Assembly: GCA_964510945.1 (NCBI GenBank)
Contig: CAZEED010000006.1
Span: 1-54,510 of the forward strand
Source of the DNA: an uncultured Candidatus Saccharibacteria bacterium
Lineage (GTDB): Bacteria > Patescibacteriota > Saccharimonadia > Saccharimonadales > JAGQNJ01
DNA length: 54,510 nucleotides
Direction: 5' to 3'
Position 1 is the first letter of the stretch, and every line of letters starts with the position of its first letter. The position numbers were made by a program, and so were the translations under genes. The notes beneath the pieces were generated by a model. It was given only the letters and a program-made list of their open reading frames with translations. It did no database searches and was not told the DNA's origin. Of the stretch, positions 3,798 through 23,100 are shown piece by piece.

Positions 3798-3890
3798 ACA
3801 CTTCAAATATATGCGTTTCGTGTCTCATTTGTCCCGTTTTGTGTCCTCCGACCCCTGTAATAGTTCCGTGACCTGTATGGGGAGCCAAGA
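3798..3890 (+). repeat. att-like direct repeat, copy A (overlaps the 3' end of the serine recombinase gene)
   Basis: About 93 bp similar to 35219-35312. There is a 28-bp perfect core gttccgtgacctgtatggggagccaaga (3863-3890 = 35285-35312) and a 16-bp perfect block gtgtctcatttgtccc (3820-3835 = 35242-35257). Similarity stops abruptly at 3890/35312. Confidence 0.7.
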
Positions 3891-5345
3891 TTGATTTTGA
3901 GAACACTCTGCGATTACATCAAAGGGTGTTTTTAGATTGAAAACCAGCTTTTTGTCCTGAATTACGAGGTTCGAAAGTAGAAAGCGTAAAAGTTTGGATT
4001 TTAGTGCCGCTTTCGAACTTTGGAACAGTTTAGGTGCTTTTGTGGCTATCTCTAACAGATACGAACTGGTTAACATAAAACTTTTATCATTATGGGTCAA
4101 AGTAACCAGCTGTTCGTCTAATTGCTCTTGTCGGGCTTTCAGGTCCTTAACATATTCGTCATAGTCATTGAGAGTAATACGCCCGTCGAGCCTGTCCTCG
4201 TACAATACTCGCAGCTTTTTCTGTATCGTGTCATATTCTGAACGGGTCCTTTCAATAGCATTTGCGTAGTAAAGTTGTTGGTTATCGTGGTGCTTACGCA
4301 GCTCGTCAATAACGTAGGTAACAATCTCATCGTTCATTTCTAGCTGACCAACCATAGCCGCAACTTGTGGCACTAGGTCCTTTTCTTTGATGTGTGGCTG
4401 CTTGCACGGACCTTTGCCCTTGCTGCATTGCATATAGACATTACCTTTGGCTGTATATGACGATACGCTACAACCGCAGCTGCCACATTTCAGCAAGCCG
4501 TTAAAAGTGTAGTCAATTGCTTGTTTCTTAGTACGGTTAGTGCCTCGCTGTTCGTTCACAGCTTGGACCTTATCAAACATCTTGCGGCTTATAAGTGGTT
4601 CGTATTTGTGAGGGTACAGCTTGCCGTTATACCGCATAACGCCGTAGTAGAACGGGTTTTTAAGTATCTGTTCAATCGTACTTTGACCAATCGGGGTTAG
4701 TTTGGCTGTATTATTTCTTAAACCCTCTTTCTTGAGCTGTGCAGCGATGCCTCTGTACGGCATACCAATTAAACGTAGTTCAAATGCCTTTTTAATATAG
4801 CCAGCTCGTTCTTGGTCTAACAGTACGGTTGTTTCTTTGTCGCTAATTCTATGGTTTACATAGCCAATCGGTGCTTTACCAGGCCACTCGCCATCGTTCA
4901 GCTTTTGCTCAAAGCGGCGTTTAACGTTATCCCTAATGCTGTCAGAGTAGTAACGAGCAAGTGCCACGCCAATACCAAGCCTGAACAAGTCAGGAGCACC
5001 AGAGTTTTTAGTAACGCATAAATTGTCTGACGGAAAGTGTATCTCAATTTTTCCGTCCTCTCGCAGCTTGTTCAGTATTTTTACCTCATCGGCTGAACTG
5101 TCCCTCGTATAGCGGTCAATTTTGTCAAAAACAACGATGCACTCGTCAGGGTAGGCTTGGATACTTTTTACAATGTTGCCAAATGTCTTACGGTTGTCCT
5201 TGTATGCACTTTCATCAAACTCAAACAGCTCGTAGTCGTAGTCTTTATCTTTGCCGTATTTTTCGAGGCGTAAAACCTGTGCAGGTAATGCCTGCCGTTG
5301 TTCTGGGTCTGATACTCTTGCTATTAAAAATGCCTTAGTTTTCAT
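3825..5345 (-). CDS. large serine recombinase (integrase)
   Basis: 506 aa. The N-terminal resolvase catalytic motif AFLIARVSDPEQ is followed by a recombinase domain, a Cys cluster (CGSCGC...CSKGKGPC) and a coiled-coil-like tail. The last ~22 codons lie inside att-like repeat A. Confidence 0.9.
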   Translation of the reverse strand: MKTKAFLIARVSDPEQRQALPAQVLRLEKYGKDKDYDYELFEFDESAYKDNRKTFGNIVKSIQAYPDECIVVFDKIDRYTRDSSADEVKILNKLREDGKIEIHFPSDNLCVTKNSGAPDLFRLGIGVALARYYSDSIRDNVKRRFEQKLNDGEWPGKAPIGYVNHRISDKETTVLLDQERAGYIKKAFELRLIGMPYRGIAAQLKKEGLRNNTAKLTPIGQSTIEQILKNPFYYGVMRYNGKLYPHKYEPLISRKMFDKVQAVNEQRGTNRTKKQAIDYTFNGLLKCGSCGCSVSSYTAKGNVYMQCSKGKGPCKQPHIKEKDLVPQVAAMVGQLEMNDEIVTYVIDELRKHHDNQQLYYANAIERTRSEYDTIQKKLRVLYEDRLDGRITLNDYDEYVKDLKARQEQLDEQLVTLTHNDKSFMLTSSYLLEIATKAPKLFQSSKAALKSKLLRFLLSNLVIQDKKLVFNLKTPFDVIAECSQNQSWLPIQVTELLQGSEDTKRDK

Positions 5346-5396: not shown

Positions 5397-6527
5397 TCAC
5401 AGAGAACCTTTTATTTGGTCCATTGTGGTTGGCTCAAACTGTTCAAGCATTTGGTTTATGCCTGCTATTGTCTTGTACTGGACCTTTTGCGTTGGCTTGG
5501 TTAGTGGTTTTAACCGTGTCCAAGCGTGTTTGCCAAAACGGTCCTCAAATAACGCTCTAATATGCCGTTGGTCGCTTGCGGTCAGCAGTAGAGCCATACC
5601 AAGCCGTGCTGCCGCTTGCTGCGGACCTTTTAGCTCATCTGTCTGCAAAATGTTAGCCAGTACCTTATGTGGCTCATTACTATCCAATGCCAGCTTGGGC
5701 AGGTTAGTGAAAAAGTTTTGCCAATGATGCTGTAACAGCAATTTTGACAACTCGACAGAGAACACATTTTTAAACGTCAGTGGCTTATCAAACCCGACGG
5801 CTTTTAGTGCGTCAGTTGTTTTCCTTTTGCCGTTCAGTCTAACCTCATAACGCATAACCGCTACTGGCTGCGTTCGTGCCAACTGGTCTAACAAATCAAG
5901 CTGCACGAAGTTATCTTTTTCCTGTGTCCGTTTTTCGCTTACTTTGGATTGTCGCAAGTCAGCCAGCTTATCGTAAATTGCAATATCAAGCGAGTTGGTG
6001 TGAACGTGCAGCACATAACCGCCATTACGAAAGTTAGTGTTTTGTATGTCATAGGTTTTGCTTATGTCAGCCGTCCGTAGCATTTGCAAGACAGCCGAGC
6101 AAGACGTGTAATCGTCAAACACAAAGTTTTTGCTGTAATGTAACGCTCTTATCTCTGCTTGTTCTAATTGCTTAGTAAATAACCAAACGCCCATTTCTCG
6201 GAGCGTTTGCTGTAATTGGCTAACGACCAGCGTAAAGTCGTTATCGGTTAGTTCGTCAAAGTTATTGCCGAAAGCAATCTTGGGCAGGCTCAACTCAATT
6301 GCCAGCTCATAACTAGCACGTTTGTAGCCTCTGGGACGCTGTGTGTAGGTCAGACGTGGCTGATACTTGCCCAGCTTTTTGATAGCCGCTGACGGATTAG
6401 CCATTGCCTTGAAATAGCCAAAATAGTCAGGGTTTATGCTATCCAGCGTCGGCTGAAAGTTGGCTCTTGCGTGTAATGGTTTGTCCATCTTTATTACCAG
6501 CTTTATTGTGTCTATCATCGTCATCAC
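5397..6527 (-). CDS. putative replication initiation protein (phage/plasmid gene II/CRI-like); function uncertain
   Basis: 376-aa ORF. The N-terminus MIDTIKLVI resembles N-termini of phage/plasmid rolling-circle initiators. It sits between the integrase and small regulatory genes. The call rests on weak resemblance and context. Confidence 0.35.
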   Translation of the reverse strand: MMTMIDTIKLVIKMDKPLHARANFQPTLDSINPDYFGYFKAMANPSAAIKKLGKYQPRLTYTQRPRGYKRASYELAIELSLPKIAFGNNFDELTDNDFTLVVSQLQQTLREMGVWLFTKQLEQAEIRALHYSKNFVFDDYTSCSAVLQMLRTADISKTYDIQNTNFRNGGYVLHVHTNSLDIAIYDKLADLRQSKVSEKRTQEKDNFVQLDLLDQLARTQPVAVMRYEVRLNGKRKTTDALKAVGFDKPLTFKNVFSVELSKLLLQHHWQNFFTNLPKLALDSNEPHKVLANILQTDELKGPQQAAARLGMALLLTASDQRHIRALFEDRFGKHAWTRLKPLTKPTQKVQYKTIAGINQMLEQFEPTTMDQIKGSL

Positions 6528-6786
6528 GTCCTTTAAAAAGCCGCTGGCACTCAGCTAAAACGGCTTGTTCAATCAGGCTGCCAACAACCCTGTTAATTGG
6601 GTGGTATAGGTTTAACTCTTTTTTACCAACTTTCTTGGTCGGATAGGTAATGCGGTACGAGCCATCTAGGCGACTATGTACGCCGATTGAGCCAAGATAG
6701 AGGCTGTCATCAATTACCACGCTGGCAAACGCTACAAGACCGCTATTTGGTTTAATCGGCACAACATTTACCTCGCTAATTGTCAT
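6439..6786 (-). CDS. SpoVG-like nucleic-acid-binding protein
   Basis: MTISEVNVVPIKPNSGLVAFASVVIDDSLYLGSIGVHSRLDGSYRITYPTKK follows the SpoVG pattern (MxITDVRI...KAxASVxxDxxFxVxxIxV...PS/TRK). The start is taken at the internal ATG 6784-6786 rather than the ORF-track start 6828. Its 3' end overlaps the Rep-like ORF start by about 89 nt. Confidence 0.7.
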   Translation of the reverse strand: MTISEVNVVPIKPNSGLVAFASVVIDDSLYLGSIGVHSRLDGSYRITYPTKKVGKKELNLYHPINRVVGSLIEQAVLAECQRLFKGRDDDDRHNKAGNKDGQTITRKSQLSADAG

Positions 6787-9410: not shown

Positions 9411-10033
9411 TGAGGGTTTTAATTTTTGGCGATAGCATTACGCAAGGATTTTGGGATTTAGACGGTGGTTGGGTTGCTCGCTTACGTCGCACCTATGACA
9501 AGCAAATGATTGAAGGCGTTAATGATGACCCGCCAACTTTATTTAATCTTGGCGTATCTGGCGATAGCAGCGACGACATTGTCACACGGTTTGATAGCGA
9601 GGCTAAGGCTCGAAAAAACAGCGAGAACCTTGCCATAGTTTTTGCTGTTGGCGTAAACGACAGTCGTACAAAGGCAGGTGTAGAGTTTTCTGATACCAAA
9701 CGCTACCTCGACAACTTAAACCAGCTTTGGCAGTCAGCGAAGCAATTTACAGATAAGCTGCTGTTTATTGGATTAACACCTTGTGTTGAAAGCCGCACTA
9801 CGCCTGTGAGTTGGGGCGATACTGGCTACACTAATGACCGCATACAAGCATTTGATAAAACCCTTAAAGATTTTTGCGAGCAAAATAACTTATCATTTGT
9901 TGAGGTTTTTGAGCCTTTTCAAGCAAAGCAACAAACAACCGAACTGCTACCAGACGGCTTGCACCCGAACGAGGCTGGTCATCAGCTCATAGCTGACATT
10001 GTTGGACCAAAGTTAGAGGAGTTATCGAAATGA
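9410..10033 (+). CDS. SGNH/GDSL-family hydrolase
   Basis: Block I VLIFGDSITQG, block III GVND and block V DGLHPN. Confidence 0.85.
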   Translation: MRVLIFGDSITQGFWDLDGGWVARLRRTYDKQMIEGVNDDPPTLFNLGVSGDSSDDIVTRFDSEAKARKNSENLAIVFAVGVNDSRTKAGVEFSDTKRYLDNLNQLWQSAKQFTDKLLFIGLTPCVESRTTPVSWGDTGYTNDRIQAFDKTLKDFCEQNNLSFVEVFEPFQAKQQTTELLPDGLHPNEAGHQLIADIVGPKLEELSK

Positions 10034-10443
10034 AAATAGGCGTAGTCGGCAGTATGCAATACACGGAAAAAATGCTTGAGTTGCGAGACAAACTAATTGA
10101 GCTTGGACACGATGCTTTTGTAACAAACTTGGCAGCTCCCTTTGTCGGAAAAACGGACGACGAAAAAGAGACTATAAAAATACACCAAAAAGAAAATATG
10201 GATGCTATACGAGAGTTTTGGAACTTAATGCAAGGTGCAGACGCTATTCTTGTAGCCAACTTTGATAAGCACGGTATCGCCAACTATATTGGCGGCAATA
10301 CATTCTTAGAAATGGGCTTTGCACACGTTCTAAACCAAAAGATATTTATGCTAAACCCTATACCAGAAATGCCCTATTACAAAACTGAGATTGTTGCGAT
10401 GAAACCCGTTGTCGTTGACGGCGACCTGACCAAGATAAGTTAG
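10030..10443 (+). CDS. nucleoside 2-deoxyribosyltransferase-like (Rossmann-like) protein
   Basis: 137 aa. GGNTFLEMGFA resembles the GTxFExGxA catalytic-Glu segment of the NDT/Rcl family. Weak, motif-level call. Confidence 0.45.
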   Translation: MKIGVVGSMQYTEKMLELRDKLIELGHDAFVTNLAAPFVGKTDDEKETIKIHQKENMDAIREFWNLMQGADAILVANFDKHGIANYIGGNTFLEMGFAHVLNQKIFMLNPIPEMPYYKTEIVAMKPVVVDGDLTKIS

Positions 10444-11078
10444 CGTTTTGTTTTAACGTCTTTTTCACTGTTCTTTTTGGTGCGATAAAGCGAAAACACA
10501 TACAAAACAATTGATACTAGCAGAGAAACGTAGATTGCGGTGTTCAGCCACACTTGCAAAGCGTTCTGACTACTTGCTGCCCACTCGCCAACTATCTTGA
10601 CTGTGATTACCGCAGTAAACAGCATTGGGAAAATATACCAGTATACGATATGCACCCAGTCCGAAAAGATAGCGTAGTTGTTTAGGTATGCTTTGCCCTC
10701 ACGGGTAAATGCCTTACCGTCATACTGTTTTGCAAGCTCATTTTCTAGCTGGTGTGTGTAGTTATACTGTTTTTCTATGTTGATAACGCTCTGAAAGTAG
10801 CGAATTGCCACATACAGCAGAGCAAACCAGACCAGTGACGCAATAACATCGACACTGATAGCAGCATCAACCTCTAACTTTTTCTGGGCAAACTGAGTTA
10901 AAACACTCTGCGACTGGGTAGGCGAAACATATTGAAACGCCATAATGCCAAGTAATACTAAAATTGCAGCAAGGTTCAGCTCACGGGACTTACCGAGCTT
11001 TTTAAAGTCAGCAACCGTGTTGTTGTAATGGTCACTCAGGACCGTGAGCCTAGTATCAGCATTTGGTTTAGCAGCCAT
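10440..11078 (-). CDS. four-TM membrane protein, candidate effector coupled to the TIR-like gene (possibly SLATT-like)
   Basis: 212 aa. Hydrophobic segments are LAAILVLLGIMAFQYV, VIASLVWFALLYVAIRYF, VHIVYWYIFPMLFTAVITV and VWLNTAIYVSLLVSIVLYVF. Its start codon overlaps the TIR gene stop (TAATG). Confidence 0.6.
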   Translation of the reverse strand: MAAKPNADTRLTVLSDHYNNTVADFKKLGKSRELNLAAILVLLGIMAFQYVSPTQSQSVLTQFAQKKLEVDAAISVDVIASLVWFALLYVAIRYFQSVINIEKQYNYTHQLENELAKQYDGKAFTREGKAYLNNYAIFSDWVHIVYWYIFPMLFTAVITVKIVGEWAASSQNALQVWLNTAIYVSLLVSIVLYVFSLYRTKKNSEKDVKTKR

Positions 11079-11767
11079 TATTTAACCTCGTTTAGTGCAG
11101 TGATGATTGGTTTTTCCCTAAATCCATCAACAAGCAAACCATTAGCCCCTTCAAGGGCATAGGGCAAGTTATAACTTGGATGTAGTCTCACAGCTACAAT
11201 CTTTTTACGGTAGAGACGAGCTTGTTGCATTTCGTAGTTAATCCAGTTTATGCAACCAATTTGTGTTAAATCTTCGTGTACCTCGTTGGCATACGCACCA
11301 ACAATTACTAGGACGTGTGTTGCATTCTTGATTTTTTGTGTCAGCACGGCTTTCACACGGTCCACTCTTTCGGACTTAATTTCAGTTGGTGTCATATCCT
11401 GGAACTTAAAATCAAATGTTTTATTTGCGTGCCACATAGACAGGGCATATCTATATTGTTTGTCATTTTCGTAATCAAAACTTACAAAAACCTGCCGTTT
11501 TTTAGCAACCAGACGTATCGGTGGCACGGTTGCTTTCTGTGGGCGAGTAAAAATTGGTAAGCCGTTGTTAGGTGGTGGTGTTGCTTTTTTTAGCCAAGCA
11601 TTAGGTTTAGGCTGTGGCTTTGTATAGATTGGCAATTTGAATTGTGATTGAGGCTTTGGCTGAGCGGCTCGTAATAAGTCCGACAAACTAGCTGGTGGCT
11701 TAGGTTGTGGTCTTGGCGGGTTTACGCCGTTTAATGCTCGGTATAATTCGTCAAAACTGTTCATCAC
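11078..11767 (-). CDS. ThsB-like TIR domain protein (DUF1863/MTH538 TIR-like) with a Pro-rich N-terminal extension
   Basis: The C-terminal ~135 aa, VFVSFDYENDKQYRYAL...ATHVLVIVGAYA...WINYEMQQARLYRKKIVAVRL, parallels Bacillus ThsB (VFFSFHYQD...TCVLIGSQT...WVRYEIMKS...KIIGIHI), including the conserved Glu. Confidence 0.8.
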   Translation of the reverse strand: MMNSFDELYRALNGVNPPRPQPKPPASLSDLLRAAQPKPQSQFKLPIYTKPQPKPNAWLKKATPPPNNGLPIFTRPQKATVPPIRLVAKKRQVFVSFDYENDKQYRYALSMWHANKTFDFKFQDMTPTEIKSERVDRVKAVLTQKIKNATHVLVIVGAYANEVHEDLTQIGCINWINYEMQQARLYRKKIVAVRLHPSYNLPYALEGANGLLVDGFREKPIITALNEVK

Positions 11768-11974
11768 GTCTTTCTTTCCAGCTACATTATACCGCTAACG
11801 GCTGCAAAATCATAGTTACACTATGCTTATGCTTACATTGCAAATGCCTAAAACGCTTGTCAAAATTAGCCCCATAAAAATTCGGTATTTCATAGGTGGT
11901 ATCCCATATCTGGGAATAAAGGGGAAGTACCCCCCTGGCTATTTATGTAACGGTTATCAAGAATTATCTGTTTG

Positions 11975-12592
11975 TTATGTTTCGCTAAGCAATAACTTGT
12001 CGGTAATGCCTTTGTAGTATAGCTCAGTGTCTTTCGCTTTATCGCCGCTGATAACATACTGCTCGTCTTTCAGCATACCCTCATACTTCACAAACAGTTT
12101 TTTACCTGTCATCGAGTTACCAAAGCTGACCGCAACCAATTTACCGTAAGGTAGTGATACAACATTTTGTCCTACGAACATAAGCCGTTTGTTAGTTAGT
12201 ATTAAGCTGCCGTTATCAACAACCTCTAACTTACTAATTGTTTCCTGTGTAGTAGTAGAGTTTCCTTTGCTGCCAGCAGTCGCAGCACCACCCAGAGCAC
12301 CCAGCGGACCAAGCAACACACCGCCAACAACCGCCCGTGTAACTACACCCTTTTTCTTTGTTTTGCCAACGGTCTTTTCAATAATCCTATCGACAACTGC
12401 CATACGCTTAGCACCAAGCTCAACATATGCTTTCTCGTTCTGTTCAAGACTTACGACTACCTGTACAGGTTCAATTTGACCAGATAATATTTTTTGCTGG
12501 CGTGCCTCTTCCTCGGCTTTTTTACGTGCCTGCTCATCTTTATAATCGTTGATTTTCTTTTTGATATTCGATGTTAGTTTCTCAAAAGCCAT
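11975..12592 (-). CDS. hypothetical protein with Gly-rich hydrophobic segment and PH/GRAM-like C-terminus
   Basis: 205 aa. The coiled-coil-like N-terminus is followed by GGVLLGPLGALGGAATAG and then LILTNKRLMFVG, which resembles bacterial PH/GRAM-like domains. Confidence 0.4.
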   Translation of the reverse strand: MAFEKLTSNIKKKINDYKDEQARKKAEEEARQQKILSGQIEPVQVVVSLEQNEKAYVELGAKRMAVVDRIIEKTVGKTKKKGVVTRAVVGGVLLGPLGALGGAATAGSKGNSTTTQETISKLEVVDNGSLILTNKRLMFVGQNVVSLPYGKLVAVSFGNSMTGKKLFVKYEGMLKDEQYVISGDKAKDTELYYKGITDKLLLSET

Positions 12593-13296: not shown

Positions 13297-13524
13297 GTGA
13301 AAACATCTTCTGTTGAACATATCTATACCGAACTAGGCAAGCGTATTGTTAAGGCACGCAATGATAAAGGTATGAGCCAAGAAAAACTGGCTGCTACTAG
13401 CGGGATTGACCGTTCACATATGGGTTTTATAGAGCAAGGTCGTAGAAAACCAACACTATCTACGCTGTTTAAAATTGCTAAATCGCTTGATATATCACTA
13501 GAACAACTGTTTAAAGGTTTATAA
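13297..13524 (+). CDS. XRE-family helix-turn-helix transcriptional regulator
   Basis: 75 aa with a GTG start. MSQEKLAATSGIDRSHMGFIEQGRRKPTLSTLFKIAKSL is a classic XRE HTH. Confidence 0.8.
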   Translation: MKTSSVEHIYTELGKRIVKARNDKGMSQEKLAATSGIDRSHMGFIEQGRRKPTLSTLFKIAKSLDISLEQLFKGL

Positions 13525-13919: not shown

Positions 13920-14678
13920 ATGACAAATAATCACGATGATCCACAACAAATATTGATACCCTTTCTGCAAGAAGCTTCGAGTTGGGGAGCTGATGATCCA
14001 AAAATCTCCAAGCCATACCTACTTGCTAAAAAAATAGTAGAGTATCTCGATTGTGATGATTCTGATAGAGAAGAAATAGAATTTCTAGCAGACAGGCTAT
14101 TAGATAAACTCGAGTCCGCACTTATGTATTATCAACTAATAAATGCCAAAGAATTTGATGGCAGAAATATTAGCCAAAAACGCACTATATATGAAGGGCT
14201 GTACGCCAACCTTTGGAGTTTCTATAAGGGTCGTGTACAGAATTATCTTCAAAAAATAGGGTGGAACCTGAGCATATTCTTTTGTAGAGATAAGAACCTT
14301 GATAAAGAAGCGACTGATTTCATTGACAAAAACCCTGAATATAAGGATCTAGTGGAGATGGCTCGCAAACAGCGCGCAGCTTGGCAGTCAGACTTTGCCA
14401 ATAGTCGCAACACTTCAGAACACAGTGGCGATTATCGTGATGGCACAAAAACTTATGAGACTAAAGCAGATGCAAAAAGATTGTTTGTGCAAGTGTGCTG
14501 GAATGCTGAAACTCTCATCGCCTATTGCGGGAGCTACAAAATGAAAAGAGAATGGAATGTTATAGAGATTAATCCGGGTGCAACTGTCTTTGATAAGGAT
14601 GATAGGTATAGCATCGAGCATGCTGCCCAAACAACTTGGAGAAAACGACACAGCAATAATAAGCGGAAGTCAGCATAA
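13920..14678 (+). CDS. hypothetical protein with HEPN-type RNxxxH motif
   Basis: 252 aa. SRNTSEHS is encoded at 14406-14423. TATAAT at 13905-13910 lies 9 nt before the ATG. The stop overlaps the next gene's start (ATAATG). Confidence 0.35.
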   Translation: MTNNHDDPQQILIPFLQEASSWGADDPKISKPYLLAKKIVEYLDCDDSDREEIEFLADRLLDKLESALMYYQLINAKEFDGRNISQKRTIYEGLYANLWSFYKGRVQNYLQKIGWNLSIFFCRDKNLDKEATDFIDKNPEYKDLVEMARKQRAAWQSDFANSRNTSEHSGDYRDGTKTYETKADAKRLFVQVCWNAETLIAYCGSYKMKREWNVIEINPGATVFDKDDRYSIEHAAQTTWRKRHSNNKRKSA

Positions 14679-15457
14679 TGAAATTTTTACAATGGGACAT
14701 TTCAATTAGGAAACGAGCTACAAGCTTGGCTCTACCGAAAAAATATGAAAAATACGAAATCAATAAAAAACTCATTTTACTGCCAAACGAGTCTTTAAGC
14801 CCAGCTGATTATTTACAAAATCTAGTAAACCAAATGAGGGATGATGTCTATCCTCTATTCAGGGCTGCTAAAGGAGGCGCTCCATTTACTGTAACTCGGA
14901 ATACCCTATGTTACATAGATCACATTGCATCGTTGATCTATGGGCCAGAGGGTCCTCAAAGTGTAAGACTAAAAAAAATTATCTCGCAATTAGGCACAGT
15001 AGACTCCTATCTAAATAGTAATTATCAAAAATATTCTGATTATTTAATCCAAATATACAGGCACGACTTGGTTCATAATATACGCCCCTTCCCAAAGAAA
15101 ATACTTGTAAACATTGAAGGAATATCAGAAAGTCGCGAAACCTGGTTCTTCATGCAAACTTTATGTGATGGTAAAAGTTTCGATGACAACTTAAGATACA
15201 TGGCCCAAAAAAGGTCTAGAAAGGGCAGGAACCACCTAAGACTGGCTAGCGTGCAGGTAGTTATTGATACCTTTAGCTTATTTTTTGACACAGTTATTTT
15301 AATAAATAGCTATATTGAAAAGTCTAAGAATGACACGAAATTCGAAACAAAACTGTCAAAAAACTACTATAAAATTATGCGCAAAAGCTATTTCAGCTTA
15401 CGTAATTTTACTCTTGATCAGTCATCAAATAAGCAAATATCTAGCAGGTCTAAATAA
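14678..15457 (+). CDS. hypothetical protein with HEPN-type RHxxxH motif
   Basis: 259 aa. YRHDLVHN is encoded at 15059-15076. Translationally coupled to the upstream gene. Confidence 0.35.
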   Translation: MKFLQWDISIRKRATSLALPKKYEKYEINKKLILLPNESLSPADYLQNLVNQMRDDVYPLFRAAKGGAPFTVTRNTLCYIDHIASLIYGPEGPQSVRLKKIISQLGTVDSYLNSNYQKYSDYLIQIYRHDLVHNIRPFPKKILVNIEGISESRETWFFMQTLCDGKSFDDNLRYMAQKRSRKGRNHLRLASVQVVIDTFSLFFDTVILINSYIEKSKNDTKFETKLSKNYYKIMRKSYFSLRNFTLDQSSNKQISSRSK

Positions 15458-15462
15458 TTCCA

Positions 15463-16737
15463 TTATTCTGCAAAACTTAATAAAGAATTCTTGAGTTGTA
15501 GTTTTGTTTGGATACCATTAGCTAGAGCGGTTCGCTCACTTTCAGCGCCGGCGCTTAGCACATACCTCGAATACTCAACGAATGGTGTTTTAAGTTTATG
15601 ATCGATTTTATAGTGGGAAAATAGTGTTTTGGTAATCGCGTAGTGTTTTTCAATCTTAGATCGGAGTTTATCGCTGATTTGGATCTTTTTATGGTTTTTC
15701 TCTATAAATTCCTGGAGCAGGATGCATAGGTTGGTTTCATTGATGTATTTCTCCGGGCAATGGGGATCGACTCGTCGTGTGCAGTTGTAATACACATGGC
15801 GATTGAAATCACCGTTTTTAAGTTTCTTGATCTTATCTTGGGCGGTTATGTCCGCGCCACATCTACCGCACTTCAGTAAACCCCTGAAGGCGAATTGTTT
15901 TGATCCCCAGATACCTTTGTTAACACCTCTGGTTTGCTGGACTAGCTCGAACAGTTCTTTAGAAATAAGCGGCTTATGAGATCCTTTGTACCACTTAGCG
16001 CCCGGGCCTTCTGGATATTGGAACTCTCCGTAGTAGAATGGGTTTTTTAGTAATGCCAGAACCTGGCTTAGAGTTACTTGTCCTCCAGAGCGACTCTTAA
16101 ATTCTTGCTCATCCAGCCAGTTCTTTAATCTACGTCCGCTCCAGTTCTCTTGGCCAGCTTTTCTAAATACTTCAGCGATTATCTCTCCACGTTCAGGATC
16201 AGGGATAATATCTTTGACCCCGCCAAACGCTCGGTTGATATATCCCAAGGGTGCAACCCCAGGGCGCCAACCCATATCACATTTGGTTCTTATCCCACGT
16301 TTTACATTAATGCTCTTATTATCGTTTTCGAGTTTTGCTTGCGAGCAGAGAATCATTAAGAGAAACTTCTCATTAGGATTGTTCGAAAACATCTGGGAGT
16401 AGGTGCGTATATGTAGCAACTTGCCTTGATCCATTAGGTCAACAATTGCCCCTAGGTCTCCGGCGTTTCTACTAAGACGATCTGGTGCCCAGGTGAGTAT
16501 GGCGTTGTACTCATCCTTGGCTATTCCTTCTAGTAGTTTGTTATATACAGGCCTTTGACCAGAATCTTTGGCCGAATGGCTCTCTTTTAGCTCACAGACT
16601 ACATTTAGGCCTTCGTTAGCCGCCTGAGCACGCATTTCGCTCAACTGTGAGTCAATCGACAACGCTTGCTGCTCATCACCTTCAGACGACTTACGTGCGT
16701 ATAAGCAGTATTTTAGTGTGATTTCAGGTTTATCCAT
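15463..16737 (-). CDS. large serine recombinase
   Basis: 424 aa. Catalytic motif YARKSSEGDEQQALSIDSQ, a recombinase domain (NPFYYGEF) and a zinc ribbon (CGRCGADI...YYNCTRRVDPHC). Confidence 0.9.
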   Translation of the reverse strand: MDKPEITLKYCLYARKSSEGDEQQALSIDSQLSEMRAQAANEGLNVVCELKESHSAKDSGQRPVYNKLLEGIAKDEYNAILTWAPDRLSRNAGDLGAIVDLMDQGKLLHIRTYSQMFSNNPNEKFLLMILCSQAKLENDNKSINVKRGIRTKCDMGWRPGVAPLGYINRAFGGVKDIIPDPERGEIIAEVFRKAGQENWSGRRLKNWLDEQEFKSRSGGQVTLSQVLALLKNPFYYGEFQYPEGPGAKWYKGSHKPLISKELFELVQQTRGVNKGIWGSKQFAFRGLLKCGRCGADITAQDKIKKLKNGDFNRHVYYNCTRRVDPHCPEKYINETNLCILLQEFIEKNHKKIQISDKLRSKIEKHYAITKTLFSHYKIDHKLKTPFVEYSRYVLSAGAESERTALANGIQTKLQLKNSLLSFAE

Positions 16738-16817: not shown

Positions 16818-19800
16818 ATGGGGAGTAAAGACAGGAAATTCCGTATAAATATGAATCTTATTGATAACAAATCTAAAACTTTAAAAGATGCACTTCTAAA
16901 TACGCTAGATTCTTCGGAACAAGTTGATATTTTAACAGGATTCTTTTACTTCTCGGGATTTTCACTAATTGCCGACAAGCTTAAAGATAAGAAAATTAGA
17001 ATCCTAGTTGGTACATCAATTGAAGCTTCTGCGATAGATCAACTACTTGCTGCGCAACAACAAGACCCAGCGATAGATTTAGCAGCTTACGTCCGGAGGA
17101 CGCCCTTAAGTGGTAGAACAGAAAGAAAACAAGAATATGTAGATAGCTTTGTAGGTTTATTCAATAAATCTTCACTATATGATCAAACTTCTGATCAAAA
17201 ATCATACGAACTGTTTGAGAAGAAGCTTCGGGATGGGACTCTGGAAATCAAACTAACTAATATTAAAAACCATGCAAAAACCTACATACTCAAAAATAAA
17301 CCAGAATTTTCACAAGGCGGTGATGCCAAAGGCGTAGTATTTATGGGGTCCAGCAACTTCACGTATCAAGGGCTTGAAGGGCAGGGAGAACTCGACAAAT
17401 CTTTCCGGGATAACTCTGACTTTGATGACTTTCAGCAACATTTTGATGAACTATGGAAATCCTCTGAAGCTATCGACCTCCAGACAAAAGAAAGTAATGA
17501 TGAGTTCATTAATGAAGTAGAGCGGAAAATATGGATACACGCAACACCGGACCCATATAAGATTTACCTGAGAATCCTCCATGAACTTTTCGGCAAAGCA
17601 TCAGATAAGGGCCTTAAGGCCCCTCATGATATTACAAGTGGGCAATTTTCAAATTTGAAGTATCAAATAGATGCAATTAGAGACGGGATTGATTGTGTAA
17701 AGAAGAATGACGGTGTAATAATTGCTGACGTTGTAGGTCTTGGTAAAAGTATTATTGCCTCGGCAATAGCTCACAACTTAGACATGCACCATACAATTAT
17801 CATTGCTCCTCCTCATCTGGTGCCGCAATGGAAAGATTACGTTCAAGAGTTCGGTCTTCGTGGTGCGCTAGTGGAAAGTTCTGGTAAAATCGAAAGTCTA
17901 TACGAGGAATACTCACAGTCAAAAACACCAATATTATTTATTGTTGATGAGGCCCATAGATATAGAAACGAAAGAACATTTGACTACCAGTGGCTACACC
18001 AACTTACTCGTTCACATGTAGATAACAAGGTCATACTTTTGACAGCAACCCCATTTAATAACGCGCCGGGCGATGTTTTTGCCTTAATCAAACTATTCCA
18101 AACACCAAGTCGCTCTACAATTCACTCAGTAGATAATTTGAGTATCAGATTCCGGGATTTGATCAGTGAGTTCACCAAATTAAAGAAGCTCAGAAAATCA
18201 AAAGCTGATGAAGAAAAAGTGAACGAACTCGCAATGAAAATTAGCAACGAGATCCGTCGTCTGATAGAACCGGTGGTGATTCGCCGCTCACGGGTAGATT
18301 TAAGAGACACTAAAGAATATGCAGATGATTTGAAGCGACAGGGAATAGACTTTGCAAAAGTTGTTGGTCCAGAATTAGTTTCTTACGATTTAGGTAAATT
18401 AGCTCCGCTATACCTCGAAACTCTACAAAAAATTCTTGGAGAAGATTCCGAAGAGGGCTTCATAGGTGCAAGGTACAAACCAATGACGTACTTGAAAGAC
18501 GCCGACAAATTCAAAGAGAAATACAGTTTATTATTCGATGATAGTGACCTTAAGACTGCGCAAACTAACCTTGCTCAGTTTATGCGTAGATTACTTGTCA
18601 CAAGATTTGAAAGTTCTAAATTCGCGTTTAGTACGACACTTAGAAATATAATAAAGTCTAATGAAGCAATATTAGCTTGGTGGGAAGAACACGGCAAAGT
18701 ACCAATCCTAAAGAAGGGCAGCCTACCAAGTCCGGAAGATATTGAATTCGATGAAAATGACGACATAGATTCAGTATTAGCAAATCTAGATGTAGATTTT
18801 GAAAAAAGAATCGATCAGTTCAAGAAAAAGGGGGTGTATGTAGATTCTGAATACATCAAGCCAACCTTCATCAATGATGTAAGGGCAGACCTGAAAATTC
18901 TTAAAGAAATCGAGGAAGCTTGGTTTGGCGCTGATAGCATTGATATAGACCCCAAGCTTGATGAGATTGACTCGACTATTAGTAAACTAGTTCACGAAGA
19001 GCCAAAAAGGAAGATCGTAATCTTTTCATCTTATGCCGATACTGCAAGATATGTATACGACACATTAACAGCACGCGGCCATAAAAGAATTATGCTATAT
19101 ACGGGTAGTAGCAGTGCAGAAGAAAAAAGAGCAGTTAGTGCAAACTTTGATGCTAGTTACGGCCCTGATTCGAAAAAGTACAAGAACGACTACGACATAA
19201 TCATTGCCACTGATGCGCTTAGTGAAGGGTTTAATCTTCACCGAGCCGGAGTAGTTATTAATTACGACATTCCATATAACCCTACACGAGTTATTCAAAG
19301 GGTTGGGCGTATAAATCGCATTAATAAAAAAGTATTCGATGAGCTTTATATATACAACTGTTTCCCAACTGCCGTAGGCGAAGCTATTACTGGTACGAAA
19401 GAAATATCGACACTTAAAATGCTACTAATAAGTAACATCGTGGGGAGCGACACTCGAACGCTCACACCTGATGAAGATATTAAAAGCATGTGGCAACGAG
19501 AATTCAAAAAAGCCGATGAGGTTAACAATCAAAAGTCTTGGGACGTCGAACACCGTAACCGCTATAACGCCATTAAACATGATACAAAGTTTTTAGAAGA
19601 AATTCTGAACATACCAGAGAGAACACGAGTTATCCGCAAGAACCAAGCAGAAAAAATAGCGATTTCATTTGCCAAAAAAGGCAGTGGCTCAATGTTTGCT
19701 CTCGCAAAGGATAATGAAGATGCACAAATTACACCTGCGGATATAGTACTTGCTTACTTTGTTGCTGATCCAGGTGAAAAATCAGAAAAAGGTGACGATA

Positions 19801-20168
19801 AGCTCGATAATCGCTTTGCGGTTCTTCGCGATAAGCTAACTGCGCCTTATCCTCAGCCAAGGATTGACGGGGCAAGAGCTGATTCATTAAAGATACTAGA
19901 ATTTCTACAAGAAAAATATCCGTCTCAAAAAGACTATCTTATAGACCTAGCGAATACTATCCGTTCGTATGACGATCTAAGCGATGGTGAAATGAAGTAT
20001 ATAGCACAAATTAAGTTTGAAGATGGTGGTAGTGAAGAGGAACTTAAGCGCGTGGTAGAAGGATTAAAAGAGAAGTTTTCGCTCCACTATATAGGCGTTA
20101 TTAAGCAGCGAGCTGAACGCGGAGAGAATCTCAGTGAGACTATAATGTTCACAGAGGATCTCAGGTAA
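16818..20168 (+). CDS. PLD-family (HKD) nuclease domain fused to an SNF2/SF2 helicase (restriction-type subunit)
   Basis: The N-terminal HKD motif is NHAKTYIL...FMGSSNFT. Helicase motif I is VVGLGKS, II is IVDEAHRYRN, III is LLTATPFNN and VI is QRVGRINR. Confidence 0.85.
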   Translation: MGSKDRKFRINMNLIDNKSKTLKDALLNTLDSSEQVDILTGFFYFSGFSLIADKLKDKKIRILVGTSIEASAIDQLLAAQQQDPAIDLAAYVRRTPLSGRTERKQEYVDSFVGLFNKSSLYDQTSDQKSYELFEKKLRDGTLEIKLTNIKNHAKTYILKNKPEFSQGGDAKGVVFMGSSNFTYQGLEGQGELDKSFRDNSDFDDFQQHFDELWKSSEAIDLQTKESNDEFINEVERKIWIHATPDPYKIYLRILHELFGKASDKGLKAPHDITSGQFSNLKYQIDAIRDGIDCVKKNDGVIIADVVGLGKSIIASAIAHNLDMHHTIIIAPPHLVPQWKDYVQEFGLRGALVESSGKIESLYEEYSQSKTPILFIVDEAHRYRNERTFDYQWLHQLTRSHVDNKVILLTATPFNNAPGDVFALIKLFQTPSRSTIHSVDNLSIRFRDLISEFTKLKKLRKSKADEEKVNELAMKISNEIRRLIEPVVIRRSRVDLRDTKEYADDLKRQGIDFAKVVGPELVSYDLGKLAPLYLETLQKILGEDSEEGFIGARYKPMTYLKDADKFKEKYSLLFDDSDLKTAQTNLAQFMRRLLVTRFESSKFAFSTTLRNIIKSNEAILAWWEEHGKVPILKKGSLPSPEDIEFDENDDIDSVLANLDVDFEKRIDQFKKKGVYVDSEYIKPTFINDVRADLKILKEIEEAWFGADSIDIDPKLDEIDSTISKLVHEEPKRKIVIFSSYADTARYVYDTLTARGHKRIMLYTGSSSAEEKRAVSANFDASYGPDSKKYKNDYDIIIATDALSEGFNLHRAGVVINYDIPYNPTRVIQRVGRINRINKKVFDELYIYNCFPTAVGEAITGTKEISTLKMLLISNIVGSDTRTLTPDEDIKSMWQREFKKADEVNNQKSWDVEHRNRYNAIKHDTKFLEEILNIPERTRVIRKNQAEKIAISFAKKGSGSMFALAKDNEDAQITPADIVLAYFVADPGEKSEKGDDKLDNRFAVLRDKLTAPYPQPRIDGARADSLKILEFLQEKYPSQKDYLIDLANTIRSYDDLSDGEMKYIAQIKFEDGGSEEELKRVVEGLKEKFSLHYIGVIKQRAERGENLSETIMFTEDLR

Positions 20169-23100
20169 TGAGCTTTTTGCAAAGGTCCTACAGTAGGGCG
20201 GATTTCCTGAATTTTGTAAGTAACGATTTCTTACCCGAATTTTCAAATGACAAACGCCCCGTTCGCACTCACGAAAAATCGTTATTAAAAGATGTTCAAA
20301 AACTAGGCGATTCAACGAGCCTAGGCCTGAGTGTATTTGAAGCCGCATGTGATGAATCCGATCACGGAAAAAGAGTTGCTATCACAATGGATGCATTTCG
20401 AATCCTTAGGGATACAGCAACTCGCAATGCATTAATTATTTTTTATTCTAAGGATTCCAGTAAATGGCGACTTTCATTACTCACCAGCAATTTTGAGCTT
20501 GATAGCAAGGGCAAAGTTACATCAAAAATGTCAAACCCTCGACGTTTTTCATATCTCTTGGGTGAAGATGCAAAAACTGTTACACCTCACAAATATCTGG
20601 AAGCAAAGGGTACCGTAAAAGATTTTAATGATTTGCAGTCGAGGTTTGCAGTCGAGGTTGTTAACAACGATTTCTACAAAGAAATTGCCAAGCTCTATGA
20701 TGAACTTGTTGGTACTGACGAAATAACAGGTTCTTTGAGGTATCCTGGGCAAGGGGAAGTCAGCCATCAATTTGCAGTAAGACTAATTGGAAGGGTTATC
20801 TTCTGTTGGTTCTTGCGCGAAAAAAAGAGTGATAAAGGCACACCTCTTATACCTGAAGAAATACTTTCTGGAGGTGCTGCAATAGATGATAATTATTACC
20901 ATAATGTGCTCGCTCCTTTATTTTTCGAAGTATTGAACAAACACGGGAAATCTCGTAGCGAGAAGTTCAGGGAGGGACTCTACGCATCAATCCCTTATCT
21001 CAACGGTGGGTTATTCAACCCTGACTTAGATGACCATTACAAATTTGATAAAGCCCTACAATTATCAGTGCCGGGTCTTGTTGATGTCCCAGATAAATGG
21101 CTACGCTCATTTCTTGATCTACTAGAACTTTATAATTTTACGGTTGACGAAAACACAAGTTACGATGTTGAACTATCAATAGACCCAGAGATGCTAGGGC
21201 GCATTTTTGAAAATCTTCTTGCAAGGATTAATCCCGAAACTGGTGAAACTGTTCGCAAGATGACGGGCAGTTTCTATACTCCCAGAGAAATCGTTGAGTA
21301 CATGGTTGATGAAAGTTTAATACAATATTTGATGACCAAAACTGATATTAATAACAAGAAACTCTCAGCGTTAGTAAGTTACGACCTCACCGATGACGAA
21401 AAACATCCACTAGATGAAAGTGAAAAAAATAAGATTACAGATGCGTTAAGTCAACTTAAGATCCTTGACCCTGCCTGTGGCTCAGGGGCATACCCAATAG
21501 GCATACTTCAAAAAATAGTCTTTATTCTGCAACAAATAGATCCTGACTCTAAGAAATGGATAGAAAAGCAACTATATGGCGCAAGCCCCGAACTCCGTCA
21601 TCACCTAGAGCGTGAATTTGAAAATAATAACTTCAATTACCTAAGAAAATTGGGAGTAATACGTGAAAGTATCTATGGTGTTGATATACAACCTATCGCA
21701 ACAGAAATTTCTAGATTACGTTGTTTTCTTACGTTGATAGTTGACCAGTCTGTTAATGATAGCGATGATAATCGTGGGATAGAACCCTTACCTAACTTAG
21801 ATTTTAAGTTAGTAACTGCTGATAGCTTGCTAAAGCTTCAAGTCGAGGAAGATGCAAACACCCAAACAGGATTATTCGAAGATACCTCAGGAATTGATGA
21901 ACTTAGAAGATTAAGAAATGAATATTTCAGTAGCCACAACCATGAACGAGAAAGCCTAAAACTTCAGTTTGCAGATAGGCAAAACCAAATGCTACAAGAC
22001 ATGATCGCAAGTAACAGCTCGGGTTTTTCGGATTTAACCCAAAAATTGTCAACATGGAAACCATTCAGTCATAAAGTGACTAGCTGGTTTGATCCTGAGT
22101 GGATGTTCGGAGTAGTTGATGGTTTTGATATTGTCATTGCAAACCCGCCCTATGTTCAGCTCTCTAAATCCGAGACAGCCACCGAAGACTACAAAGCAGC
22201 ATTAAGAAAGACTTTTAATACTTCAGCTGGCAGGTTAAATACATTCATATTCTTTATACATTTTGCCATAGATAATCTGAGTGATCACGGAATACTTAGC
22301 TATATAATACCGAACACACTTTTAGCACAGACATATTATAGTGCTACAAGGAAGTACTTATTAGACAAGACAAACCTTAAAGAAATAGTTACTTTTCCAA
22401 AAATGCAATTCGCAAATGCTACAGTAGAAAATATTGTTATATTCTCTACGAAGTCATCAGGTAGTGGAGAGGTTAAGATTACACAACAAAGTAACGGTCA
22501 AATTGAGAAATTGGGTACAAAAAGCATAGAGAAATTTAATGTCTCACCTAGCTACAGTTTTGACATTAATTCTAACAAAGTTATCGACGATGTATTTAAT
22601 AGAAAACATACAGTTTTAGGTGAGTTGTGCATGATCAATCAGGCGATCGCTCTTAAAGGAGATAGGAAAGCCTCACTTGAAAAAAGTAAAATTAATGATG
22701 ATTGCTATCCCGTTTTAGATGGCAGGAATATCGGAAAATATTCTATTAATTGGGGTGGGGAATTCTTAAACTATGACATTAATAAAATACATTCGTGTAA
22801 AAGAAAAGACATTTTTCAGACTAAAGAAAAATTATTCTTTAGAAGAGTTTCTAAGAATTTAATTTTTGCATATGACGACAAGCAATACTTTGGGCTAAAT
22901 ACATTAGTAGTTGTTACAGCAAGGGACAAGTGCCCGGTAAATTTAAAATACTTGCTAGGTTTGTTAAATTCTAAGTTAATAAACTATATATATGAGAATA
23001 AATTTAAGTCCACTAAAACCGTATTCTCTGAAATACAAGCTAGAACAGTAGGGCTGCTACCTATCGTGGTTAGTAGCCAGGATGAAGTAGTCAAAACAGT

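Follow-up and report, generated by a model that had tools for sequence, protein, structure and literature searches.

A ThsB-family TIR gene overlapping a gene for a four-helix membrane protein in Saccharibacteria: a putative Thoeris-type pair without a canonical ThsA

Two overlapping genes of a Saccharibacteria contig, encoding a ThsB-family TIR protein and a small protein with four membrane helices (4TM), probably constitute a two-gene Thoeris-type anti-phage signalling system, with the TIR protein as signal producer and the 4TM protein as membrane effector. The stretch of DNA analysed, here called the window, is 54,510 nucleotides in length. On sequence comparison the pairing corresponds to the '4TM' class listed by Yirmiya et al. 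(2025, bioRxiv 10.64898/2025.12.03.692087). The Saccharibacteria host, the Pro-rich N-terminal extension of the TIR protein and the breadth of the 4TM family have not been described previously. The features of the locus are as follows, with the basis of each in brackets.

11078-11767, minus strand: thsB-like gene encoding a 229-aa TIR protein (ORF with GTG start; Pfam and PADLOC)
11498-11767, minus strand: N-terminal Pro-rich extension of the TIR protein, about 90 aa (low AF2 confidence; alignment)
11081-11497, minus strand: TIR domain, aa 91-229 (Pfam match to aa 94-196; AF2 beta-alpha fold; Foldseek)
11231-11233, minus strand: codon of the predicted catalytic Glu, E179, in WINYE179M (conservation; alignment with ThsB of B. 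cereus MSX-D12)
10440-11078, minus strand: gene for the '4TM' putative Thoeris effector, a 212-aa membrane protein with four helices (ORF; hydropathy; AF2)
11076-11080, minus strand: TAATG stop/start overlap leading from the TIR gene into the 4TM gene (read from the sequence)
11086-11089, minus strand: GAGG Shine-Dalgarno sequence (read from the sequence)
11922-11935, minus strand: terminator-like hairpin separating the TIR gene from the 205-aa gene upstream (consensus scan, pattern match only)
11786-11791: candidate TATAAT box (consensus scan, pattern match only)

The two open reading frames and their TAATG overlap are as the sequence-only reading had described them. Base 11078 is common to the TAA stop of the TIR gene (11078-11080) and the ATG start of the 4TM gene (11076-11078), an arrangement from which translational coupling of the two genes is predicted. 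Overlapping stop and start codons are also compatible with a stoichiometric protein complex. The start of the TIR protein is probably the ATG at 11764, which gives a product of 228 aa; close homologues are 228 aa long and begin MNSFD. The hairpin at 11922-11935, a pattern match only, suggests that the two genes are transcribed as a separate unit. Two adjacent genes were considered as further components and rejected: the upstream 205-aa gene (11975-12592) is not kept with the pair elsewhere and is separated from it by the terminator-like hairpin, and the convergent 137-aa ORF (10030-10443) does not adjoin the pair in other genomes.

The 229-aa protein is a ThsB-family TIR protein with a predicted catalytic Glu. 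It matches Pfam PF08937 (ThsB_TIR) with an E value of 7e-10 and 39.6 bits (cutoff 21.2) and the PADLOC ThsB1 model with 1.6e-10. The three motifs on which a ThsB-like C-terminal domain had been proposed, VFVSFDYEND (aa 93-102), THVLVIVGAYA (aa 150-160) and WINYEMQQA (aa 175-183), are all present and align with ThsB of B. cereus MSX-D12. The Glu of the last motif, E179, lies opposite the catalytic Glu in RWVRYEI of that protein, and both E179 and W175 are 100% conserved in an alignment of 70 TIRs. The TIR fold expected of this product is borne out by the two profile matches and by Foldseek, for which the top structures are EcThsB2 (8v6t, E 4e-6), EcThsB (8wcf), ThsB-Tad3 and the SARM1 TIR; the AF2 model has pLDDT values of 85-93 over aa 91-229. 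Over the N-terminal extension (aa 1-90) pLDDT is 44-60. A start motif, FD(E/D)LY(K/R)AL, is conserved in this extension, which also carries LPI(Y/F)T.PQ repeats. The alignment confines the extension to a Saccharibacteria subclade, as it is found in homologues of 181-229 aa and is absent from those of 135-148 aa. Bare TIR domains of 135-150 aa, with no sensor domain of their own, form the majority of the TIRs paired with the 4TM family.

The partner was originally read as a protein with four hydrophobic helices and no recognisable soluble sensor domain, and this description holds. Four hydrophobic cores are found at about aa 34-52, 74-95, 142-163 and 180-198, and the protein has no match in Pfam or PADLOC. 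The topology predicted from hydropathy and charge (18 Lys and Arg inside, 2 outside) is N-in/C-in, and the AF2 model is all-helical (pLDDT 81.5, pTM 0.77). The cytoplasmic part comprises only about 80 residues and includes two conserved elements, aa 7-33 and aa 96-140 (RYFQ..IE.QY.Y.H.LE...FTREG..YL), that are rich in invariant Tyr, His, Arg, Glu and Gln. Across 91 representatives of the family, R32, E112 and Y131 are invariant and 13 further positions are at least 90% conserved. When the window protein and these 91 diverse relatives were compared with Pfam, PADLOC and NCBIfam, no consistent family emerged. A profile of the family gave a single insignificant match among PDB sequences, and the AF2 model, searched with Foldseek against PDB and BFVD, gave nothing below E 0.05 and generic helical bundles only. 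Since neither a nucleotide-binding domain nor a structural relative was recognised in these searches of PDB sequences, PDB and BFVD, the binding of a signal by the 4TM protein is conjectural.

The family itself is large. It comprises 806 clusters at 50% identity, 612 of them with E values of 1e-10 or lower, from many phyla that include CPR/Patescibacteria, and one interrupted copy lies on the contig of an archaeal (Methanothrix) MAG. Cultivable carriers are Blautia producta DSM 2950 (NZ_CP039126.1, L112), Bacillus cereus ACH27 (L113), B. pseudomycoides AFS041167 (L065) and B. marasmi (L020). The many conserved homologues of both genes indicate that these are real genes and not chance ORFs. Loci were gathered with a hand-built degenerate DNA pattern, which returned 101; the 28 without a family gene were ignored, and these are chance matches apart from locus L052 of Gracilibacteria, where the genetic code may differ. 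The sample for co-occurrence thus consists of 73 species-representative genomes, of which 69 are assessable, four loci being cut at an edge. Co-conservation of the two genes, set beforehand as a test of the pair, was found: a TIR gene adjoins the 4TM gene on the same strand in 67 of the 69 assessable genomes, and the other neighbours vary from one genome to another, which places the pair in unrelated contexts. The TIR beside the 4TM gene is of ThsB type in 63 genomes, a PF10137 TIR in three and a TIR_2 protein in one, and two genomes (L030 and L073) have the 4TM gene without any TIR. Altogether, four different TIR classes pair with the 4TM family, and together with the adjacency in 67 of 69 genomes this indicates that the pair is a real, co-conserved module. 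Intergenic gaps between the two genes elsewhere range from -68 to +22 nt. A Mantel test shows a correlation between the pairwise identities of the TIR and 4TM proteins (r 0.50, p about 0.001). Several loci possess more than one TIR gene for a single 4TM gene, either in the order TIR-4TM-TIR (L072, L079 and L106) or as two TIRs with a 4TM gene (L060 and L100). The classic Thoeris layout is one in which several sensors feed a single effector.

A putative '4TM' Thoeris effector appears in Table S1 and Fig. 1C of Yirmiya et al. (2025), associated with TIR cluster 2727267812. The class is a computational listing of 36 TIRs; the text of that study carries no description of the effector, the effector sequences are not given, and the systems tested in Table S2 do not include it. 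The link of the partner family to the published class therefore runs through the TIRs: three '4TM' entries of Table S1 recur with 100% identity as the TIRs directly upstream of the 4TM gene in L056, L108 and L112. Among 80 TIRs adjoining the family, 72 have their best Table S1 match in the 4TM class. The best matches of the window TIR all lie in the 4TM class, the first being TIR 2739812945 (46.7% identity, E 6e-45); outside this class the best TIR reaches 24% identity. The window pair and the listed class have in common a ThsB-type TIR and a small protein that has no domain besides its four membrane helices. They differ in that the window copy belongs to a Saccharibacteria genome and in that its TIR possesses the Pro-rich extension, which the listed TIR domains and the members from outside Saccharibacteria do not have. 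Within the library of papers searched, no main text contains both 'Thoeris' and '4TM', and no paper is on Thoeris in Saccharibacteria. The sequence-only reading had presented the pair as one without a canonical ThsA, and to that extent it stands; the novelty it implied does not, since the pairing is listed in Table S1 and three types consisting of a TIR and a membrane-only effector, V (DUF2270), VII (SLATT) and X (ion channel), have been validated (Yirmiya et al. 2025).

The pair shows the marks of a Thoeris system, namely a ThsB TIR with a predicted catalytic Glu and an effector-candidate gene conserved beside the TIR gene in one operon. We infer that it acts in defence, by production of a particular signal, binding of this signal by the 4TM protein and damage to the membrane. 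The TIR protein, activated by phage infection, would make an ADP-ribose-derived signal from NAD+ by means of its conserved catalytic Glu. The 4TM protein would bind this signal via the conserved cytoplasmic helices flanking its membrane helices (aa 7-33 and 96-140). Oligomerisation or a change of conformation would then lead it to compromise the membrane, and the ensuing growth arrest or cell death would stop phage replication. Phage-dependent signal production has been shown for the TIRs of validated systems with membrane-only effectors (Yirmiya et al. 2025). By analogy with the nearest tested TIR, the signal might be canonical cADPR, although this is a weak guess. An assignment of the signal from the TIR cluster was considered and judged unreliable, since type VII TIRs make cADPR whichever of three different clusters they come from (Yirmiya et al. 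2025).

The order of events could also be reversed, with the 4TM protein serving as a membrane sensor or anchor that detects phage DNA injection, holin action or envelope stress and activates the TIR protein by contact, and with the TIR protein as the effector that depletes NAD+. Many bacterial TIRs are indeed NADase effectors (Yirmiya et al. 2025), and the paired TIRs are mostly bare domains without a sensor of their own. The TAATG coupling and the gaps of -68 to +22 nt elsewhere fit a stoichiometric complex, in which the TIR protein could dock on the conserved cytoplasmic helices of its 4TM partner. Against this, the TIR protein is a member of the ThsB family and shares its TIR cluster with proteins whose signal production has been proven by experiment. 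The invariant 4TM residues moreover persist with four unrelated TIR classes, which is hard to square with a co-evolving interface; recognition of a small molecule fits this pattern better than a specific protein-protein interface does. Operons that combine several TIRs with one 4TM gene likewise agree with a scheme in which many sensors serve a single effector. A contact-activated TIR effector is for these reasons considered unlikely.

For the reading preferred here, that of a TIR signal producer with a 4TM effector, the known Thoeris types supply several parallels. Type V (ThsB with the three-helix DUF2270 protein ThsF, signal 3'cADPR) is also composed of a TIR and a membrane-only effector without a classical ligand-binding domain, and in the model for this type the signal occupies pockets between the protomers of a membrane oligomer (Yirmiya et al. 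2025). As a best guess by analogy, signal pockets may likewise be situated between the protomers of a 4TM membrane oligomer. Type V differs, however, in its TIR clusters and in how many membrane helices its effector has, and DUF2270 (PF10028) has no match in the 91 members. Type II (ThsB with a TM-Macro effector, signal His-ADPR) has a membrane-disrupting effector too, and among solved structures the window TIR is matched best by ThsB proteins of E. coli. The 4TM genes of L087, L088, L060 and L100 adjoin TIRs that, among the entries of Table S1, best match the B. amyloliquefaciens Y2 TIR of type II. No Macro domain is matched by Pfam in the 4TM protein, and 212 aa with four membrane helices leave no room for one. 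Type I (ThsB with a SIR2-SLOG ThsA, signal 3'cADPR) possesses a ThsB-family TIR of the same kind, with an aligned catalytic Glu, whereas the present pair has no SIR2-SLOG protein. The absence of SLOG, Macro and SIR2 domains, first noted for the two proteins by eye, extends to the 20 neighbouring ORFs in a Pfam scan of 3.8-28 kb. Membership among the CBASS membrane effectors is not indicated: the CBASS 2TM and 4TM membrane-effector models of PADLOC gave one marginal match (2TM_IV, E 0.0076) among the 91 members, and the genes adjoining the 4TM gene across the 73 loci are TIR genes.

Type VII (ThsB with the SLATT effector ThsH, signal canonical cADPR) is a further parallel, being also made up of two genes for a TIR and a small membrane-only effector, and its logic, in which the signal triggers a membrane assembly, is probably analogous. 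One possibility is that the 4TM protein is a SLATT-type effector that has diverged strongly, the pair then being a type VII system that responds to canonical cADPR, and the sequence-only reading had called the first two membrane helices and the helical segment after them SLATT-like at best. Bacillus type VII TIRs paired with SLATT belong to the same TIR cluster (2727267812) as the 4TM-class TIRs, a conserved helix follows the second membrane helix in both families, and a TIR+SLATT module lies side by side with a TIR+4TM module in L053. A direct relation to SLATT finds no support in the comparisons, however. A single-sequence comparison was negative. Pfam gave no SLATT match to the window protein at E<=1 and none to SLATT/DUF4231 in any of the 91 members at E<0.01. 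The profile-profile comparison, which covered SLATT_1/DUF4231, returned an hhalign probability of 0.6% and an E value of 0.1 against a 28-sequence profile, with only 21 hydrophobic columns aligned. The type VII effector has two membrane helices in about 141 aa, whereas the 4TM proteins have four in about 205-212 aa, and '4TM' and 'SLATT' are separate classes in Yirmiya et al. (2025). The TIRs differ as well: that of the window is about 24% identical to type VII TIRs, and 4TM-class TIRs carry an insert of about 10 residues (N..H.D...IG) ahead of the catalytic WxxxE, an insert missing from the type VII TIR of B. licheniformis. The SLATT-like description is left without support, and descent from a SLATT effector is regarded as quite improbable.

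The surroundings of the pair in the window have, judged from their genes, the character of a mobile-element and defence-island region. The proposed location on an integrative element next to an Ltp-type protein agrees with what was found: the Ltp neighbour matches PF07553 (E 2e-47), and two large serine recombinases and one FtsK-like gene are near the pair, together with genes for an HKD-Snf2 helicase, a type IIG restriction-modification protein and a methyltransferase. No convincing att-like direct repeats bounding an element were found in 1-30 kb, no element boundary is visible in GC content, and a PHROGs scan of unknown neighbours was uninformative. The neighbourhoods of the pair contain restriction-modification, AAA_15/21, DUF3800 and Snf2 helicase genes, and copies in L011, L012, L074 and L097 are decayed, frameshifted or interrupted. 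That the pair is not immune at all, and is instead an addiction or toxin-antitoxin-like module of mobile elements or a housekeeping membrane function with a TIR-like fold, would agree with its place beside recombinases, with the decayed copies common for selfish modules and with there being no reported phenotype, yet it is highly improbable in view of the strictly conserved catalytic Glu, the defence-island neighbourhoods and the choice of the TIR cluster for its enrichment beside known defence genes (Yirmiya et al. 2025), decay and patchy distribution being equally typical of defence genes.

A broader reading is possible and is advanced tentatively. The 4TM protein may found a new and widespread Thoeris effector family, without detectable relative and present in many phyla including CPR/Patescibacteria, that would sense a TIR-made nucleotide via juxtamembrane helices only, without a classical ligand-binding domain. 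Since it pairs with four TIR classes, its signal might be one that has yet to be described. The Saccharibacteria ThsB may have gained its Pro-rich tail, with the short motif, as a means of altering infection sensing or of tethering the enzyme, and among episymbiotic bacteria with reduced genomes the pair would be the first case in which a signalling-type abortive-infection system is characterised. Should the proposal hold, Thoeris immunity would gain a validated effector family, and a ligand site built from membrane-flanking helices only would represent a new way of reading ADP-ribose-derived signals. Reduced-genome epibionts such as Saccharibacteria would then carry signalling-type defence on mobile elements, which bears on how cells dependent on a host bacterium cope with phages. 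Having no model in Pfam, PADLOC or NCBIfam, the 4TM family is missed by current defence-finding tools, for all its abundance of 806 clusters in many phyla. Copies occur in cultivable Blautia and Bacillus strains, which makes the 4TM class directly testable.

The gene pair, a ThsB-type TIR gene followed by a gene for a small four-helix membrane protein (4TM), is a new Saccharibacteria member, with an unusual TIR tail, of a predicted and unvalidated class of Thoeris, the anti-phage signalling systems in which the TIR enzyme ThsB makes a nucleotide signal for a separate effector. The sequence-only reading had described a Thoeris-like TIR and four-TM pair lacking a canonical ThsA; the observation is confirmed, and the interpretation was largely right apart from its implied novelty and its comparison of the partner to SLATT. 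The elements of the pair are as follows.

10440-11078, minus strand: 4TM ORF, 212 aa
11078-11767, minus strand: TIR ORF, 229 aa with a GTG start
11086-11089, minus strand: GAGG Shine-Dalgarno sequence of the 4TM gene, 8 nt upstream
11498-11767, minus strand: Pro-rich N-terminal extension of the TIR protein, about 90 aa, AF2 pLDDT 44-60
11786-11791: TATAAT box, pattern match only
11922-11935, minus strand: terminator-like hairpin between the pair and the upstream 205-aa gene, pattern match only

Both ORFs are read from the minus strand in head-to-tail order, and base 11078 is common to the TAA stop of the TIR gene and the ATG start of the 4TM gene (TAATG), an overlap correctly read from the sequence. 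Close homologues of the TIR begin at the next codon, ATG 11764, giving 228 aa. The 4TM stop codon (10440-10442, minus strand) overlaps that of a convergent 137-aa ORF (plus strand, 10441-10443), so that no terminator space is left between the two transcription units. This convergent ORF is the last of four plus-strand genes, the order being excisionase-HTH, methyltransferase, GDSL hydrolase and the unknown ORF itself.

Residues 94-196 of the TIR protein match Pfam PF08937 ThsB_TIR (E 7e-10, 39.6 bits, cutoff 21.2) and nine PADLOC models, all but one of them ThsB (best 1.6e-10). The AF2 model, built from an input of 25 sequences, has a pLDDT of 85-93 over residues 91-229, and its best Foldseek matches in PDB are EcThsB2 (8v6t, E 4e-6), EcThsB (8wcf), C. 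elegans TIR-1, the ThsB-Tad3 complex and the SARM1 TIR. The three sequence blocks from which a ThsB-like TIR with a conserved Glu had been proposed are all real: W175 and E179 (WINYE179M) are present in all 70 TIRs aligned (100% conservation), and the latter stands opposite the Glu of RWVRYEI in ThsB of B. cereus MSX-D12. The N-terminal extension carries a conserved start motif, FD(E/D)LY(K/R)AL, and repeated LPI(Y/F)T.PQ elements. This Pro-rich tail is seen only in one subclade of Saccharibacteria homologues (181-229 aa); TIRs outside it are bare domains of 135-150 aa.

The 4TM protein has, as had been noticed, four hydrophobic cores (about residues 34-52, 74-95, 142-163 and 180-198) and no soluble domain, and it matches no Pfam or PADLOC model and no PDB sequence. 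Its N-terminus, 96-140 segment and C-terminus hold 18 Lys/Arg and the two remaining loops hold 2, which indicates an N-in/C-in topology. The AF2 model is helical throughout (pLDDT 81.5, pTM 0.77) and matched no PDB or BFVD structure by Foldseek. The protein is not an orphan: a word-indexed search returned 100 relatives, of which the few with a named source are from Saccharibacteria, Saccharimonadia or Nomurabacteria, and an exhaustive profile search gave 806 cluster representatives at 50% identity, 612 with E<=1e-10. Among 91 diverse representatives no consistent family was found in Pfam, PADLOC or NCBIfam. R32, E112 and Y131 are invariant in these 91, and H17, Y18, W84, Y94, Q96, Y105, Y107, R126, E127, G128, Y146 and P151 are at least 90% conserved. 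The cytoplasmic N-terminal helix and the 96-140 segment (the latter reading RYFQ..IE.QY.Y.H.LE...FTREG..YL) together contain twelve of the 17 conserved positions. So the protein, although it has no soluble domain, does have a cytoplasmic helical module, some 80 residues long and strongly constrained. The family is large, missed by current annotation libraries and testable in cultivable carriers.

The two genes are clearly co-conserved, contrary to the condition that would have refuted the sequence-only reading. Four 4TM relatives, at 72%, 56%, 53% and 34% identity, all have a ThsB_TIR gene immediately upstream, and their remaining neighbours are unrelated to one another. A degenerate DNA pattern of the most conserved 4TM motif, scanned over one genome per GTDB species, yielded 101 loci, and 73 of them hold a true family member. 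These are distributed amongst Saccharibacteria and many other Patescibacteria, Bacilli, Clostridia, Bacteroidota, Chloroflexota, the Cyanobacteriota-related Obscuribacterales, Planctomycetota, Acidobacteriota, Actinomycetota, several Proteobacteria, Omnitrophota and Poribacteria. Their neighbourhoods divide as follows.

Neighbours of the 4TM gene in the 73 loci
ThsB-type TIR upstream only: 54
ThsB-type TIR downstream only: 6
ThsB-type TIR on both sides: 3
PF10137 TIR protein (335-344 aa): 3
TIR_2 protein: 1
Not assessable because the locus ends there: 4
No TIR (L030, L073): 2

A TIR therefore adjoins the 4TM gene in 67 of the 69 assessable cases. Pairwise identities among the TIRs correlate with those among the 4TM proteins (Mantel r 0.50, p about 0.001), and the two genes form a module. 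Frameshifted 4TM copies were seen in L011 and L012 (about 5989-6685), where the TIR gene is also lost, and in L074 (468-1312); on an archaeal MAG contig (Methanothrix, L097 4894-6664) the 4TM gene is interrupted by a 310-aa ORF.

Systems of this kind have been catalogued before, though only as predictions. A December 2025 preprint (Yirmiya et al., bioRxiv 10.64898/2025.12.03.692087) surveyed about 600 million proteins, defined 29 putative Thoeris configurations and validated types V-XI; the validated membrane-only effectors are DUF2270 (type V, three helices, 3'cADPR), SLATT (type VII, canonical cADPR) and an ion channel (type X). In Table S1 of that study a class labelled '4TM' comprises 36 TIRs, all of TIR cluster 2727267812, and the class is absent from the tested systems of Table S2. 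By BLASTP against Table S1, this class is the best match of 72 of 80 TIRs beside the 4TM family. Three TIRs (L056 Butyrivibrio, L108 Pseudobutyrivibrio and L112 Blautia producta DSM 2950) are 100% identical to Table S1 entries, each directly upstream of a 4TM family member. The window TIR is 46.7% identical to a '4TM'-class TIR (E 6e-45) but only 24% to the best TIR outside the class. The novelty at first implied for the pair was accordingly overstated. In the library searched, no paper mentions 'Thoeris' together with '4TM' in its main text, and Thoeris in Saccharibacteria is the subject of none.

Not all TIRs beside 4TM genes belong to this class. Those of L087 (5114-6359), L088 (3398-4636), L060 and L100, from Bifidobacterium, Bryobacterales and Vicinamibacterales, are ThsB-type and best match the type II (His-ADPR) TIR of B. 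amyloliquefaciens Y2 rather than 4TM-class TIRs, which raises the question whether the effector family reads more than one signal. L072, L079 and L106 have an additional TIR, from a different cluster. In Bacillaceae and Neobacillus (L033 3893-5565, L058 5441-7113, L109 3989-5776), the gene after the 4TM gene encodes not a ThsB but the 335-344-aa protein, with an N-terminal PF10137 (CAP12/Pycsar-type) TIR and an unknown C-terminal region of about 200 aa. The TIR_2 neighbour, in a Chloroflexia locus (L090), has 349 aa.

The best-supported reading, held with moderate confidence, is that the pair is a Thoeris-type signalling system. ThsB would sense infection and, via E179, turn NAD+ into an ADP-ribose-derived signal; the conserved cytoplasmic helices of the 4TM protein would bind this signal, and the protein so loaded would damage the membrane. 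That the signal is cADPR is a weak guess. The reversed logic, with the 4TM protein as sensor and the TIR as NADase effector, is unlikely. A hidden SLATT relationship of the 4TM protein is improbable: hhalign of a 28-sequence SLATT_1/DUF4231 alignment against the 91-sequence 4TM alignment gave a probability of 0.6% (E 0.1), with only a hydrophobic stretch aligned, and hmmscan of the window protein and the 91 representatives returned no SLATT match. The proposal that the partner is at best SLATT-like is thus not supported, the profile-profile comparison covering SLATT_1. A non-immune function of the pair is very improbable, and a direct protein switch between TIR and 4TM is disfavoured relative to signalling by ThsB family membership and a cluster shared with proven signal producers, by operons with several TIRs and one effector, and by 4TM Tyr, His, Arg, Glu and Gln residues that stay invariant with each of the four TIR classes.

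The SLATT family used in the comparison comes from a Bathymodiolus endosymbiont (L053 486-2729, minus strand), where a TIR+SLATT_1/DUF4231 module directly adjoins a TIR+4TM module in tandem. The former module is type VII-like: its SLATT_1/DUF4231 protein has Pfam E-values of 1e-23 and 9e-19, and its TIR shares 64% identity with the validated Pseudohongiella TIR.

In the window, the pair lies within the left ~27 kb, which also holds an excisionase-type HTH and the following genes.

467-1924: FtsK/SpoIIIE gene
3825-5345 and 15463-16737, minus strand: large serine recombinases, 10 kb apart
11975-12592, minus strand: upstream 205-aa protein gene, with a Gly-rich hydrophobic segment
12689-13195, minus strand: Ltp neighbour, two Lipoprotein_Ltp repeats, E 2e-47
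13297-13524: XRE-type HTH gene
16818-26354: defence-type gene cluster beside the second recombinase

The right half resembles normal chromosomal DNA, with TyrRS, SulP, ABC transporters and tRNA-Ser. The two recombinases and the FtsK/SpoIIIE gene suggest two integrative elements, nested or in tandem; a search of 1-30 kb found no convincing direct (att) repeats at their flanks. The defence-type cluster contains an HKD(PLD)-Snf2 helicase (PADLOC C3a139/DrmD-like, 1.5e-41), a type IIG-like restriction-methyltransferase of 1024 aa (2.9e-77) and a ParB-N6/N4 methyltransferase; a further protein in it, 368 aa long, matches the candidate system PDC-S11 (1e-20). The Ltp-type neighbour had been recognised from the sequence; its N-terminus has a hydrophobic anchor and no lipobox cysteine, so the protein is probably membrane-anchored and not lipid-modified. 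The 205-aa protein has a weak bacterial PH-domain match (bPH_3, E 0.0011, below cutoff) and weakly matches PHROGs that have no assigned function, and its gene is not conserved with the pair elsewhere. Two abutting ORFs of 252 and 259 aa (13920-15457, plus strand), the second ATG beginning on the last stop base of the first, have no match in Pfam, PADLOC or PHROGs; lying between the XRE-type HTH gene and a serine recombinase, they could be a second, uncharacterised cargo or defence pair. In the nearest relative (TIR 97%, 4TM 92% identity), the contig carries an excisionase-type HTH gene and a 415-aa ORF, comparable to a 416-aa ORF of the window, and its cargo genes differ.
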